The translations under genes were made by a program, and so were the position numbers. The notes under the pieces were generated by a model. That model worked only from the letters and a program-made list of their open reading frames with translations, searched no databases and was not told the origin of the DNA. This document shows positions 11,487 through 57,958 of a DNA stretch of 64,000 nt, piece by piece (positions within the stretch are counted from its first letter, which is position 1; every line of letters starts with the position of its first letter). The stretch comes from Escherichia coli (GTDB taxonomy: Bacteria; Pseudomonadota; Gammaproteobacteria; Enterobacterales; Enterobacteriaceae). The stretch lies in assembly GCF_003334405.1 (NCBI RefSeq), contig NZ_QOWM01000012.1. One strand, given 5' to 3'.

Positions 11487-11585
11487 GCCTGATGCGCTGC
11501 GCTTATCAGGCCTACAAGGTTTCTGCAATATATTGAATTTGCAATATTTTGTAGGCCGGATAAGGCGTTCACGCCGCATCCGGCA
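11487..11585. repeat. REP pair (BIME) between lafA and lafB
   Basis: gcctgatgcgctgcgcttatcaggcctac and gtaggccggataaggcgttcacgccgcatccggca. Confidence 0.7.
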
Positions 11586-17289: not shown

Positions 17290-17505
<216 letters not shown>

Positions 17506-36626: not shown

Positions 36627-36710
<84 letters not shown>

Positions 36711-43134: not shown

Positions 43135-43338
43135 GCACAACTGCCGGATGCGGCGTGAACGCCTTATCCGTCCTACCGTTCAGGCACAAGTTTGTAGGCA
43201 TGATAAGACGCGCCAGCGTCGCATCAGGCATCTGCGCATAACTGCCGGATGCGGCATAAACGCCTTATCCGGCCTACCGATCCGGCACAAGTTTGTAGGC
43301 ATGATAAGACGCGCTAGCGTCGCATCAGGCATCTGCGC
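43135..43338. repeat. BIME: two tandem ~100-bp REP-pair units
   Basis: Unit ctgccggatgcggcrtraacgccttatccgkcctacc...gtaggcatgataagacgcgcyagcgtcgcatcaggcatctgcgca repeated twice. Confidence 0.75.
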
Positions 43339-43919: not shown

Positions 43920-44025
43920 AAATATTCGCGGGCTCGTAGGCATGATAAGACGCGCCAGCGTCGCATCAGGCACCTGCGTACAACTGCCGGATGCGGCGTA
44001 AACGCCTTATCCGTCCTACAAAATC
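43920..44025. repeat. REP pair (BIME)
   Basis: gtaggcatgataagacgcgccagcgtcgcatcaggcacc ... ctgccggatgcggcgtaaacgccttatccgtcctac. Confidence 0.7.
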
Positions 44026-47214: not shown

Positions 47215-47345
47215 TCGGATGCGGCGTGAACGCATTATTCGGCCTACGGTTCGCGTACAGATTTGTAGGCATGATAAGACGCGTCAGCGTCGCATCAGGC
47301 ATCAGCGCACAAATGCCGGATGCGGCGTAAACGTCTTATCCGGCC
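47215..47345. repeat. BIME (REP cluster)
   Basis: tcggatgcggcgtgaacgcattattcggcctac ... gtaggcatgataagacgcgtcagcgtcgcatcaggcatc ... gccggatgcggcgtaaacgtcttatccggcctac. Confidence 0.7.
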
Positions 47346-51287: not shown

Positions 51288-52058
51288 GTGCCTGGTTTGA
51301 AGATTACGCTTTTGCAGCAACCACTGGTGTGGATGGATGGTCCTGCCAACCTGCGTCATTTTGATCGTCAACTGGAAGGTATTACCGGGCGCGATGTGAT
51401 CGTTCTACCGGAGATGTTTACCAGCGGCTTTGCCATGGAAGCGGCAGCTTCGTCGCTAGCACAAGATGACGTAGTGAACTGGATGACAGCTAAGGCGCAG
51501 CAGTGCAATGCGCTGATTGCAGGCAGTGTTGCATTACAAACGGAGTCTGGTTCGGTTAACCGCTTTTTGCTGGTTGAGCCGGGCGGCACGGTACATTTTT
51601 ATGATAAGCGTCATCTGTTCCGCATGGCAGATGAGCATCTACATTATAAAGCGGGCAATGCGCGAGTGATTGTGGAATGGCGCGGCTGGCGTATTTTGCC
51701 GCTGGTGTGCTACGACTTACGTTTTCCTGTGTGGTCGCGCAATCTCAACGATTATGACCTCGCCCTGTACGTCGCCAACTGGCCTGCTCCGCGCTCTCTG
51801 CACTGGCAGGCATTGCTGACGGCCCGCGCGATTGAGAATCAGGCGTATGTGGCGGGATGCAATCGCGTCGGCAGCGATGGCAACGGCTGCCATTATCGCG
51901 GTGACAGCCGGGTGATTAATCCGCAAGGAGAGATTATCGCTACTGCCGACGCGCATCAGGCAACGCGCATTGATGCGGAGCTGTCGATGGCAGCATTGCG
52001 GGAATATAGAGAAAAGTTTCCGGCATGGCAGGATGCGGATGAGTTTAGGTTGTGGTGA
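51288..52058 (+). CDS. yafV: nitrilase-superfamily omega-amidase YafV
   Basis: 256 aa from GTG (MPGLKITLLQQPLVW), RBS AAGGAG; carbon-nitrogen hydrolase fold (E...K...C triad context, CYDLRFP). Confidence 0.85.
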   Translation: MPGLKITLLQQPLVWMDGPANLRHFDRQLEGITGRDVIVLPEMFTSGFAMEAAASSLAQDDVVNWMTAKAQQCNALIAGSVALQTESGSVNRFLLVEPGGTVHFYDKRHLFRMADEHLHYKAGNARVIVEWRGWRILPLVCYDLRFPVWSRNLNDYDLALYVANWPAPRSLHWQALLTARAIENQAYVAGCNRVGSDGNGCHYRGDSRVINPQGEIIATADAHQATRIDAELSMAALREYREKFPAWQDADEFRLW

Positions 52059-52098
52059 GTGGGGGTTGTGTTTAAGGACGGGGAGAGTCGGGGTATTA

Positions 52099-53235
52099 CT
52101 ACGAAAGCCCGCTCCCCGCAAGGACTGACGCCAGGTAGTTTCTGTCCATGGCTGCTTTTCGCATCTTACGTCTTAACCCTGCCTTGAATACCTTCTCATT
52201 CGTCAAAATATTAATAGCAATGTGCCGTATCCCTGAAAATAATTCTGCTGCGTTTCCTCTTCTTATTTTGTAGTCGTCTTCATTCATTACCACGTCCAGA
52301 CGCCTGTGCAGCTTATTCTCCACGTGCCAGTGGTTTCGGATTGCTGTGGCGAACTTCTCTGCGGTTAAATCAGCAGAACTGATATAATATCTGACCGTCA
52401 TTTCTGGCTCTTTCTTTTGTTCTGCTATTATTGACCGAAAGGAGACTGCCACGCATAATTTCTTCAGCCCTTTCCATTCAAACGTGAAATCAATAAGTTC
52501 ATCAGGGACATCGCAAACAATATGAAGACGGATTTCTTCTCTGCCGTGACTCTTTTCACTCATTGCGTAACTGTCATGCGCTGGATTATTTAATTCTTTC
52601 AGCGGAAATTTTTCCTCAAAGGCTTTATTTAGCCGCCCCTGGTTTCCTTTTACCGCGAATAAATAATCACCTCCCTGTTTTTGTATCTTCTCTGCAATAT
52701 CTTTCTGGCAACCCATCGCATCAGTTGTGATGATTTTTCCTTTAATATCCAGCATGTTAAGAAGTTCTGGGATAGCTGTAATCTCATTAGATTTCTCATC
52801 CGTCCTGATCTGTCCGATGACCAGACTGTGCATTGTTGAGAACGCACTAATGACATGAATCGCTCCCTTGCGGCGACTCTTGTCATAAGAATGCCGGAGT
52901 GTTTTTCCATCAATTGCGATGACGTCTTTATCATCTGAAGTATGGCAATCTCGCATCCAGTTAATAAAGCACTCGTGAAATTTTGAAGGACTGATACAGG
53001 ATACAACTCTGGCGATGGTATCGTGAACAGGAATACCATTTTCAAAATCACCATATTGTTTTAAAAAATCGAGATGTGTTTCCCCAAAATCCTCTATATC
53101 TTCCCAGCCTTCTGCACCAGAAATAACGGCACAAATAGTCAACAGTAGAATATCCGATAATTTATGTTCCACTTTCCAGGCTTGTCTGTAATCGGGGATA
53201 ATAGAAATATGTTCCATCAATTTTTTAAGTTCCAT
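52099..53235 (-). mobile_element. ISAs1-family (H-repeat) transposase, full-length ORF
   Basis: 378-aa [21 protein letters not shown]...; H-repeat-associated protein family typical next to Rhs elements; corresponds positionally to K-12 pseudogene yafF. Confidence 0.8.
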
Positions 53236-53333
53236 TTTGTTCTCCTTAATTATGTAAGGAGTATTTGATCATGTATAAGCAATAAAAAACAGCTTCAGGT
53301 AATGAGGAATATCTCAATTTTTAAACATAAAAT

Positions 53334-53632
53334 GCGAATTATTTAGTACAAAAAATCAGCGTTACGTGATCTTTCCCTGCCCCTGCGCTCACTACCATGG
53401 CTCTTTACCACAGCAGCCGGGGTTGTTTGGGACCGACTTCCGACAGCAGATCCCGGTGGGCCTGCCACCATCTCTTCACAAGCTTATGCTTATTACATGC
53501 AAAACGTCCCGTTTTGCATCTTTGTGCCTACGGCACACCGGTGATCTTTCCCTGATGAGGGATATATTAACTATTGAACATTAGCGCGAATTATTTAGTG
53601 CAAAAAATCAGCATCACGTGATGCTTTTCCTG
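53334..53632. repeat. pair of ~45-bp direct repeats flanking a ~200-bp GC-rich segment
   Basis: gcgaattatttagtRcaaaaaatcagcRtYacgtgatSttttcctgc at 53334-53379 and 53586-53632; core gtgatctttccctg also at 53541-53554. Confidence 0.4.
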
Positions 53633-53665
53633 CTATTAATAACCTCCTCTATTTAACTATATTTT

Positions 53666-54058
53666 TCATTGATGCAATTCGTAGATTTGAAGAAGTTCAA
53701 CTGCCACATTTTTATTTTTACTATCGCAATTTTTATACCATACCCATGCTTCCGTATTTTTTACTTTTTTTAAATCATCCATAATAAAATCCCCACCAAA
53801 AACAGTAAAATACAATGTTTCCTCATTAAAAATAAAACTCACTGCCCCCCCCTCTTTTATTTTAATTTCCGCTTCATTTGTGTTCAAATCAACTTTTTTA
53901 ATTACTCCATGTAAGTTGGGTTTTGATAGTTTTTCTACGCCACCATCAGGAGCGGGTAATATACATCGTTTAAGAACTTTAGCATTTGCACATCCAATAA
54001 CCCAAATTAGAATGCACACTCCCATGTTAATCGCATTAACGTGTCTTAAAACGTTCAT
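53666..54058 (-). CDS. candidate immunity lipoprotein for the Rhs C-terminal toxin
   Basis: 130-aa AT-rich ORF immediately downstream of rhs tip; N-terminal signal sequence with lipobox-like VIGC; start codon uncertain. Confidence 0.45.
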
Positions 54059-55478
54059 ATCTAATTCTCTCTCCAGGATGCGAATACATCCAACTTGTCA
54101 CTTTCTTACACAACTCATCTACATCTTCATTCTGTGCACGGGTACATCCCATAGTTGGTTTCCAGCCTTGTCGAGGAGCATAAGGATCGCGCAACGATGA
54201 TCCCCCACCATGTAGCCATCTTGCTCTAGTATCTGTAGTATAGATCTTCGTTGTGCCATATGCTGCCGATATTCCTGATTCATTTGTCTCACAACCAACG
54301 ACTTCACCTGTATATGGATCACCAGCACCACGTTGAGAACGACGATCAATTCTATTGCTACTATCAAAAGTCATTGAATCACCTGTTTCAGGATCATAAT
54401 AAATAGTCACTCCTCCAGTCATATCAGTAAGAACAAGAGGAGTTTCAGCACCTGCCCGGTCTGGAGCGGGAGGCCCATATACACTTATAACTCGTTCTAA
54501 CCCCAGTGGATCAGTGTAACGTATTGGTACCAGTGGATACGTGTATAGATTTATTCCCCCCTTCAACCCTATCGGATCCTGGGTGATATACCGCCCCTGC
54601 AACGGATCGTAGTACCGGTGACGGTTGTAATACAGTCCCGACTCCTCATCATACTGCTGCCCCGGCAGACGGAGTGACTGTTGAAGGTGCTGCGCACTGG
54701 TTTCGCCCAGCAGGTTTCCCCATTCGTCATACTCCCCGCACCACGCCGTTTCCCCTTCCGGGCTGATAAGCGCCTGCGGCAGTCCCCGGTGGTCACAGTG
54801 GTAAAGATGAAGTTTCCTCTCCGGGATGTATTCCGCCTCCATCTGCGCGGCCATCTGTTCCGCCGTCAGCCCGCACTGCGCAAGCCATGCCTCACTCTCC
54901 GCACTCACCGCTCCCGCGCGCAGTTCCCGCTCCAGCCTCCCCAGCATCACCGCCAGCTCCGCCGGGAGCGTCACACCCGTGTCCTCCTGCAACACCTCCG
55001 CCAGGCTCCGGTGCCGCGCCTTCGCCTGTTCGCCATTCTCTGTTTCGATTCTGATGAGCGGCGTGAAGCTCCCCGGCTGGTATACCGTCTGGATACGCGT
55101 GGTGCCGGTCTGTACCGTCGTCAGCCTGTCACCGTCCCACCCGTACCATGTCACCTCCGGTTTACGCGACAGCGACATCCACCCCGTCAGGTCACGCTCC
55201 CGCCGCCATACCCGTTTTCCCGTCCGGCGGCCCAGCGGGTCATAGAGGTACCGGCTCTCCACCTGTGGTTCGCCGTGCTGTATCCGCGTGTAGAACACCA
55301 GGCGGTGCTGGCTGTCGTAGTGGTAGTGGTGGGTCCGCTCGTCGTGCATCCGTATCACCCCTTCCGGGATGCGGTCCGTCTTCTCCGCCAGCCTGCCGTA
55401 TTCATCGTGGCGGTAGACATAGTGCGCATCTTCCGCGATGCGGTTACCCGGCGTTTTCCCCGATGCTGGTTGAGTGGC
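54036..55478 (-). CDS. rhs: Rhs protein C-terminal fragment (core repeats + DPLGL boundary + L,D-transpeptidase-like toxin domain)
   Basis: YD/Rhs repeats ([20 protein letters not shown]), conserved ...[26 protein letters not shown]...DPLGL core end, then 153-aa tip with LHGG...[15 protein letters not shown]; frame opens only at 55478, so N-terminal ~1000 aa absent. Confidence 0.7.
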
Positions 55479-57958
55479 TTAAAGAGGGCTGGCTGCTGGC
55501 GTCGGCTGAGATGCAGCACAGCGAACTGCGCGGCGGCGTGTTGCTGCTGGCCCTGCTGCATTCGCCGCTGCGTTATATACCGCCTGCTGCCGCCCGGCTG
55601 TTGACCGGCATTAACCGTGACCGTCTGCAACAGGACTTTGTGCAGTGGACACAGGAGTCGGCGGAATCAGTCGTGCCGGATGCAGACGGTAAAGGCGCAG
55701 GCACAATGACGGACGCCTCTGACACCCTGCTTGCCCGCTATGCCAAAAACATGACCGCAGACGCCCGTAACGGCAGGCTTGACCCGGTACTGTGCCGCGA
55801 CCACGAAATCGACCTGATGATCGACATTCTCTGCCGCCGCCGTAAAAACAACCCGGTGGTGGTGGGCGAAGCGGGCGTGGGCAAAAGCGCACTGATTGAA
55901 GGGCTGGCGCTGCGCATCGTGGCAGGCCAGGTGCCGGACAAGCTGAAAAACACCGATATCATGACCCTTGACTTGGGCGCATTGCAGGCCGGGGCGTCGG
56001 TGAAGGGTGAATTCGAAAAACGTTTCAAAGGGCTGATGGCGGAGGTCATTTCCTCCCCGGTGCCGGTCATTCTGTTTATCGACGAAGCACATACCCTGAT
56101 TGGCGCGGGCAACCAGCAGGGCGGGCTGGATATCTCCAACCTGCTCAAACCGGCGCTGGCGCGCGGCGAGCTGAAAACCATCGCCGCCACCACCTGGAGC
56201 GAGTACAAAAAATACTTCGAAAAAGATGCCGCCCTGTCGCGCCGCTTCCAGTTGGTGAAGGTCAGCGAACCCAACGCTGCCGAAGCCACCATTATTCTGC
56301 GCGGTCTGTCGGCGGTCTATGAACAGTCTCACGGCGTGCTGATTGATGATGACGCCTTGCAGGCCGCTGCGACATTAAGCGAGCGTTATCTCTCCGGGCG
56401 TCAGTTACCGGACAAAGCGATTGATGTGCTGGATACCGCCTGCGCCCGTGTGGCCATCAACCTGTCGTCGCCGCCGAAGCAAATCTCGGCGCTGACCACT
56501 CTGAGCCACCAGCAGGAGGCGGAAATTCGCCAGCTTGAGCGCGAGCTTCGCATCGGACTGCGTACCGACACATCACGGATGACAGAGGTGCTGGTGCAGT
56601 ATGATGAAACGCTGACGGCGCTGGATGAACTGGAAGCGGCCTGGCACCAGCAGCAGACGCTGGTCCGGGAGATTATCGCGCTGCGCCAGCAGTTACTGGG
56701 CGTGGCAGAGGACGATGCGGCGCCGTTGCCGGACGCAGATACCGTGGAGGATACGCAGCCAGAGTCAGAGTCAGAACAGGATAATACCGGTGCCGTACCG
56801 GCTGATGAGGCCGACAGAGAACAACCGGAAGAGACCGCTGAAACAGTTTCCCCGGTACAGCGGCTGGCCCAGCTCACTGCCGAACTGGACGCCCTGCATA
56901 ACGACCGGTTGCTGGTCTCCCCGCACGTCGATAAAAAACAGATTGCGGCGGTGATTGCCGAATGGACCGGCGTGCCGCTCAACCGCCTGTCGCAGAATGA
57001 AATGTCGGTCATCACCGACCTGACGAAATGGCTGGGTGACACCATCAAAGGCCAGGACCTGGCGATTGCCAGCCTGCATAAGCATCTACTGACCGCACGC
57101 GCCGACCTGCGTCGTCCGGGACGCCCGCTCGGTGCGTTCCTGCTGGCTGGCCCCAGCGGTGTGGGTAAAACCGAAACCGTCCTGCAACTGGCAGAGCTGC
57201 TCTACGGCGGTCGCCAGTACCTGACCACCATCAATATGTCCGAATTCCAGGAGAAACACACCGTCTCGCGGCTGATTGGTTCGCCTCCGGGCTACGTTGG
57301 CTACGGTGAAGGCGGCGTACTGACCGAAGCGATTCGTCAGAAACCCTACTCGGTAGTACTGCTCGATGAAGTGGAAAAAGCGCACCCGGATGTGCTCAAC
57401 CTGTTCTACCAGGCGTTCGATAAGGGCGAAATGGCAGACGGTGAAGGCCGCCTGATTGACTGCAAAAATATCGTCTTCTTCCTGACGTCCAACCTCGGCT
57501 ACCAGGTAATAGTCGAGCATGCCGATGACCCGGAAACCATGCAGGAAGTACTGTATCCGGTGCTGGCCGACTTCTTCAAACCTGCCCTGCTGGCGCGTAT
57601 GGAAGTGGTGCCGTATCTGCCGCTGTCGAAAGAGACGCTCGCCACCATTATCGCCGGAAAACTGGCCCGTCTGGATAACGTGCTGCGCAGTCGCTTTGGT
57701 GCAGAAGTGGTCATTGAACCGGAAGTGACGGACGAAATCATGAGCCGCGTCACCCGCGCGGAAAACGGCGCGAGGATGCTGGAATCGGTCATCGATGGCG
57801 ACATGCTACCGCCGCTCTCGCTGCTGCTGTTGCAGAAAATGGCGGCTAACACGGCGATTGCCCGGATTCGGTTGTCGGCAGTGGACGGCGCATTTACGGC
57901 AGACGTGGAAGATGCTCAGAACGACGAGTCCGTCACAAAGGATGAAACGGTTTTATGA
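55463..57958 (+). CDS. clpV: ClpV-like AAA+ ATPase (TssH), 5-prime end abutting rhs fragment; N-domain short or truncated
   Basis: Two AAA+ modules (GEAGVGKSA; GPSGVGKTE); N-terminal segment [10 protein letters not shown]...; only ~85 aa precede the linker ([19 protein letters not shown]) versus ~150 expected; no RBS or intergenic space. Confidence 0.7.

Follow-up and report, generated by a model that had tools for sequence, protein, structure and literature searches.

The window (the whole analysed stretch of 64,000 nt of Escherichia coli DNA, from contig NZ_QOWM01000012.1) carries the C-terminal fragment of an Rhs protein on its minus strand (54036..55358 in the ORF list), which comprises the end of the core and the toxin tip. 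It is followed on the same strand by an ORF of 130 aa (53666..54058 in the ORF list) that overlaps the end of the Rhs ORF by 23 nt, matches no NCBIfam family and is named 'hypothetical protein' by PGAP; judged by its position, this is presumably the gene for immunity to the toxin tip. Next comes a segment, 53236-53665, that RefSeq/PGAP leaves unannotated among the 30 identical records listed, and then a transposase gene (52099..53235, minus strand). On the plus strand, an ORF for a ClpV-type AAA+ ATPase of a type VI secretion system (T6SS) occupies 55148-57958 and starts inside or against the Rhs fragment region. Its listed frame of 936 aa has an implausible N-terminal extension rich in Pro, Gly and Ala, and the real start probably lies further downstream than listed.

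The transposase frame runs through 378 aa without interruption and matches the NCBIfam model NF033564 ('ISAs1 family transposase') over the whole length of the profile (all 314 positions), scoring 407 bits where the cut-off is 70, which places it among the DDE transposases of the ISAs1 family. It aligns without gaps, at 98% identity, with the ISEc1 transposase of E. coli ATCC 8739, and a near-identical protein in REL606 and E. coli C (3 aa differences) is labelled 'ISAs1 family transposase' by PGAP. The resemblance to the H-repeat (H-rpt)/ISEc1, the ISAs1-family insertion sequence (IS) of the E. coli Rhs elements, extends to the left terminus and leader, which are the same in the window, and to the linkage with the downstream end of an Rhs module. 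By homology to canonical copies at other loci, the body of the resident element occupies 52100..53379 on the minus strand, corresponding to element nt 1 to about 1280. K-12 possesses only a remnant at the same locus, 100% identical to window positions 51990-52379; it combines the final ~280 nt of the IS with the yafV flank and is annotated as the pseudogene yafF. The preliminary description of this DNA had noted both the intact H-repeat (ISAs1-family) transposase of 378 aa and the yafF pseudogene in its place in K-12, and on both points it was right.

An intact transposase ORF should not be mistaken for an intact IS. In comparisons with six independent H-repeat copies, homology sets in at 53379/53380 and ends at 52100 every time, and the matching right terminal inverted repeat (...ATCTTGCCCTG) is absent from the resident element. 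The seven right ends inspected at six other loci finish in ...TCGTAATCTTGCCCTG or a close variant, whereas the window reads ...TCGTAGTAATACCCCGACTCTCCCCG. In canonical H-repeat/ISEc1 copies the finish ...GGGCTTTCGTAATCTTGCCCTG, or a close variant of it, mirrors the left terminus as its inverted complement, and this right repeat is overlapped by the TAA stop codon of the transposase; the window copy instead finishes in ...GGGCTTTCGTAGTAATACCCCGACTCTCCCCG and uses TAG, and the transposase ORF is intact because this TAG happens to sit at the same codon. The canonical terminal 11 nt (ATCTTGCCCTG) are thus missing or degenerate in the right-end alignment of the region 52079..52099 (minus strand), in which the residue at 52079-52089 bears only a weak resemblance (CGGGGAGAG versus CAGGGAAAG). 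No target-site duplication of the resident IS is present either, the flanks being GAGCGCAGGGG on the left and TCCTTAAACAC on the right. In contrast, a clean ISEc1 copy, the ydcC copy of ATCC 8739, has the 10-bp target duplication GCCCGACATG on both sides. The right-end junction is shared with K-12 at 100% identity and is therefore old. Judged by its sequence, the resident element is a member of the ISAs1 family by descent and not a complete IS. It is probably immobile as a unit despite its intact transposase ORF, because the canonical right terminal repeat is missing and there is no target duplication. H-repeats as a group have reportedly never been observed to transpose. The earlier picture of the IS hence stands as far as the ORF is concerned, while it overlooked the missing canonical right terminus and the fact that all of the features are to be read on the minus strand.

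Upstream of the transposase lie the direct repeats that had drawn attention to the region. A repeat finder gives 37 nt at 92% identity (53334-53370 and 53586-53622), and with gaps the similarity extends over ~80 nt at 81% (53302-53380 versus 53555-53633), far beyond chance. A 14-nt core of the repeats, GTGATCTTTCCCTG, occurs exactly at 53366-53379 and again at 53541-53554. All three copies are left-terminal H-repeat sequence (CAGGGAAAGATCA...) in the same orientation, which excludes an origin as the two inverted ends of a single element. The first, repeat A (53302..53379, minus strand), is the true left end of the resident element and comprises the terminal inverted repeat CAGGGAAAGATCAC... 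and the leader. Starting at nt 1, it can be aligned with the left ends of ISEc1 copies whose flanks are clean and show a target duplication of 10 bp. Such clean copies begin with CAGGGAAAGATCATCAGAAGTACACTTTTTGTACTAAATAATTCGC, and the left terminal inverted repeat (CAGGGAAAGAT...) is represented from 53379 downward by CAGGGAAAGATCAC, aligned with five independent left ends; left ends of the A type read GATCACGTAACGC, against GATCATCAGAAGT in the canonical variant. Repeat B (53555..53632, minus strand) is a stub of 78 nt that stems from the left end of a second, diverged H-repeat and breaks off after ...CCTCAT; its leader resembles the RhsB-type variant L007. The third copy of the core belongs to a left-end stub of only 16 nt (CAGGGAAAGATCACCG; 53539..53554, minus strand), recovered by the repeat search and by comparison with ATCC 8739, where the same IS end serves as the 5' exon of a group II intron.

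Direct repeats around a distinct segment superficially resemble a target duplication, and the repeats could in principle represent duplicated target sequence, or both ends of one IS, with the GC-rich DNA between them as cargo or a remnant of the target. We regard this reading as scarcely credible. The duplication made by ISEc1 measures 10 bp (GCCCGACATG, in the ydcC copy of ATCC 8739) and not 37-80 nt, the repeats are only 81-92% identical to each other, and the alignments of A and B to independent H-repeat copies both begin at nt 1 of the left terminus; moreover, the segment between them is intron sequence, as shown below. A target-site duplication is consequently ruled out. The ~45-bp direct repeats seen earlier (53334-53379 and 53586-53632), together with a third copy of their core, are therefore real, and among the origins then offered for them the IS ends are retained, on the alignments with independent copies at other loci, while the duplicated target is not. 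The preliminary description had itself proposed a comparison with known IS termini as the test that could overturn its reading, and a match was essentially found.

A palindrome with a T-run (AGCATCACGTGATGCT GATTTTTTGC) and an intrinsic-terminator-like score lies within repeat B (53610-53625, minus strand), and the resident copy A has a weaker equivalent at 53349-53372 (minus strand), in which the palindrome is degenerate. Sites of this kind at the H-repeat left end could insulate the transposase from read-through coming from the Rhs operon.

The segment between the stubs and the resident IS was identified by an Rfam scan, in which RF01999 ('group-II-D1D4-2') matches 53349-53469 on the minus strand (81.8 bits, gathering score 36, E = 2e-16). 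Read on this strand, the segment starts with GTGTG at 53538-53534, the canonical 5' end of group II introns, and the GUGYG end and the secondary structure of domain I are both present. From there to 53380 it shares 98.7% identity with nt 1-159 of the full-length ATCC 8739 intron (1887 nt), and it agrees without any difference (100% identity) with the fragment E.c.I9-tr2 at its published coordinates (REL606 242510-242668). The 5' exon is likewise the left end of an H-repeat. On these grounds we assign 53380..53538 (minus strand) to the group II intron E.c.I9 of bacterial class D, of which only nt 1-159 with the 5' sub-helices of domain I are left. The last hairpin of the RF01999 model is formed by IS sequence in the window, whereas it is a genuine hairpin in EDL933 (90.1 bits) and ATCC 8739 (92 bits). 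RF00029, the model for domains V and VI, has no match at the gathering threshold in the whole 64-kb window, and the ORF list contains no reverse transcriptase ORF near the fragment, the frames inside the 159 nt being spurious (42-72 aa). The intron of ATCC 8739, in contrast, carries ltrA and matches both models (RF01999 with 92 bits and RF00029 with 61.9 bits). Because domains V/VI and the reverse transcriptase are absent, the segment of 159 nt is a dead fragment of E.c.I9 and not an intron. The preliminary description had suggested an IS end or a small structured RNA in a GC-rich segment of ~200 bp; the high GC content holds (59% within the Rfam match), but the unit measures 159 nt, and the RF01999 match, the identity to ATCC 8739 and the correspondence with E.c.I9-tr2 replace both suggestions by the 5' end of E.c.I9.

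The full-length E.c.I9 lies at the RhsE locus of ATCC 8739 and shows how the intron is seated in the IS. Its exons are CAGGGGAAGATCACG and AGAAGTACACTTTTTGTAC, which join to an uninterrupted IS end (CAGGGAAAGATCATCAGAAGTACAC...); after the intron the sequence is AGAAGTACACTTTTTGTACTAAATAATTCGC, where the IS resumes. The homing site of E.c.I9, as read from these junctions, is accordingly situated 15-16 nt inside the H-repeat left end, and this is the reason that a short copy of the IS end precedes the intron piece. The splice junction can be placed only to within one nucleotide, with a 5' exon stub of 15 nt in ATCC 8739 and of 16 nt in the window and EDL933. The window shares this 5' exon with ATCC 8739, but is missing nt 160-1887 of the intron, which comprise domains II-VI and the remainder of domain I and include the ORF for the reverse transcriptase/maturase; where ATCC 8739 continues from the intron into the 3' exon, the window has a complete IS left end. 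Outside E. coli, many loci on rhizobial plasmids (Sinorhizobium/Rhizobium) show 77-80% DNA identity over ~95-100 nt of the window stub, and these matches may represent RmInt1-type introns of class D. RmInt1 homes to ISRm2011-2, and the RmInt1-type introns and E.c.I9 share their class but differ in host and homing site.

The fragment is already known from the catalogue of Leclercq & Cordaux 2012 (PMC3522654, Tables S2/S3), in which E.c.I9-tr2 is a class D fragment of 159 bp 'in another Rhs region', listed for E. coli BL21, BL21(DE3) and REL606. The same catalogue gives E.c.I9-1/tr1 as full length in ATCC 8739 and as a fragment of 193 bp in EDL933, Sakai, IAI1, SE11 and E24377A, and names the Rhs IS (ISEc1-5) as the specific target of E.c.I2 and E.c.I9 (PMC3522654). 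E.c.I9-tr2 of REL606 and the window agree in sequence, length, locus (from the Rhs remnant on the aspV side to yafV) and the neighbouring ISAs1 transposase. They differ beyond ~54023, where IS1 replaces the Rhs fragment and the T6SS genes in REL606 and E. coli C, whereas the window keeps the Rhs fragment and ClpV; in these two strains the IS1 lies immediately upstream of the 130-aa ORF. The terms H-rpt and group II intron occur together in no open-access paper.

The intron piece is ordinary in E. coli, being carried by about half of the complete genomes. A piece of 161 nt is present in 2850 of 5426, usually once, and any intron piece in ~2700-2850 of the same set, while at least 80% of the intron length is found in only 84. 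At every other locus inspected, the piece is part of an Rhs locus and is closely followed downstream by an ISAs1 transposase. The stubs differ in length, with 193 nt in EDL933, 159 nt in the window, 147 nt in OkiPb01701 and 80 nt in SMN197SH3, and each of these abuts an H-repeat left terminus; a stub of 97 nt in strain 3347558 abuts unrelated sequence. The junctions between stub and IS are placed at CAG(G) microhomologies with the IS tip. Four matches of lower identity (H63, H66, H67 and H69) were considered as full-length introns, and all turned out to be stubs upstream of ISAs1 transposases in Rhs loci. The plasmid record CP044307.1 (L003) was likewise rejected as a full-length or divergent intron, since it holds an indel-ridden copy of the Rhs/stub/H-repeat module at 82-86% identity without any Rfam match. 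This record describes a plasmid of 149 kb, pC27A-2, that carries the chromosomal module with many indels, and its divergence is probably an assembly error, stemming from an uncorrected long-read assembly or a misassigned chromosomal contig.

Taken together, the region is very probably a fossil in which pieces of mobile elements are stacked downstream of an Rhs toxin/immunity module, with no active ribozyme and no separate RNA gene. One competing reading is an independent small structured RNA encoded at 53380-53585, such as an sRNA, or a riboregulator exapted to control the transposase or the Rhs module. The 159 nt do fold more stably than shuffled sequences (-63.9 kcal/mol, z = -3.55), they lie directly upstream of the transposase in the same orientation, and they are kept in about half of the E. 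coli genomes. The stable fold is, however, fully explained by descent from ribozyme domain I, and wide retention is expected from vertical inheritance combined with recombination of Rhs modules. Rfam yields no sRNA family match, a permissive E-value adding only two chance-level snoRNA matches to the intron, and promoter-like sites are not in excess in 53150-53750 (3 found versus 2.0 expected from shuffles), and no such site immediately precedes the stub on the minus strand. The free variation of stub length (193, 159, 147, 97 and 80 nt) also argues against selection on a defined RNA, and we consider such a gene very unlikely.

The correct GUGUG 5' end and the intact 5' helices of domain I might further suggest one half of a split, trans-splicing intron, or a stub that otherwise functions as a group II intron. 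Such a function is hardly conceivable, for the 64-kb window contains no RF00029 match to domains V/VI and hence no 3' half, no reverse transcriptase ORF is adjacent, genomes with any intron piece have it at a median of one place, and the 3' boundary of the stub is an IS terminus rather than a structural boundary of the ribozyme. Little probability also attaches to co-option of the stack, in which its terminator-like hairpins and folded stub would act in cis as a leader or insulator that protects the H-repeat transposase against Rhs/T6SS read-through, or in which the H-repeat would be retained as the downstream homology arm for swaps of toxin/immunity cassettes.

Along the minus strand, the stack consists of an H-repeat stub (53632-53555), a second H-repeat stub (53554-53539), the intron piece (53538-53380) and the H-repeat with its transposase (53379-52099), one after the other. 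E.c.I9 would first have retrohomed into an H-repeat left end, and later a further H-repeat end would have been joined to intron position 159. Such a joint could arise if an H-repeat inserted into the intron and IS copies in direct orientation then recombined, or alternatively through an IS-mediated adjacent deletion; in both cases the other ~1.7 kb of the intron would be lost, and with it the reverse transcriptase gene and the catalytic domains V/VI. Judging from the end-states, the nested series of stubs beside an intact IS end fits an adjacent deletion, and equally an insertion with recombination; the predicted intermediate, in which intron sequence would flank an H-repeat on either side, was not found. 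Abortive target-primed reverse transcription yields 3' fragments, and 5' stubs such as these therefore cannot derive from it. The outermost 14-19 nt of the H-repeat left end are also duplicated in tandem in EDL933 (L004 3970-4002, CAGGGAAAGATCAC AGGGAAAGATCATCG) and at the RhsE locus of OkiPb01701 (L005 4157-4195, CAGGGAAAGATCATCAGGC AGGGAAAGATCATCAG); these mini-duplications may be traces of aberrant transposition or of repeated adjacent deletion.

The stack seems to travel with its Rhs neighbours. A module of 3.35 kb (55452-52100) contains the Rhs core end, the toxin tip, the 130-aa ORF, the stubs of IS ends and intron, and the H-repeat. It matches the RhsE locus of OkiPb01701 (L005 2090-5454) at 96% identity, and the homology ends exactly at 52100. 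PGAP names the corresponding proteins at the RhsE locus as RHS repeat-associated core and, for the toxin tip, L,D-transpeptidase family protein. The identity of 96% between the Rhs locus linked to aspV and the T6SS and the RhsE locus of OkiPb01701 therefore points to cassette exchange between Rhs loci, in which the Rhs core and the H-repeat likely served as the two homology arms.

The locus thus illustrates the erosion of a retroelement that targets an IS, as well as the movement of Rhs toxin/immunity cassettes between loci together with their H-repeat. The label 'E.c.I9 group II intron fragment plus H-repeat left-end stubs' would clear the apparent mystery of the unannotated segment, and the importance of the locus beyond annotation is small. 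Elsewhere in the window, the Rfam scan also found naRNA4 (REP/BIME-type) at five loci (17347-17424, 36631-36707 on both strands, 43197-43274, 43939-44016 and 47268-47345) and ES036 at 11508-11550, all of which are ordinary intergenic repeats of E. coli.
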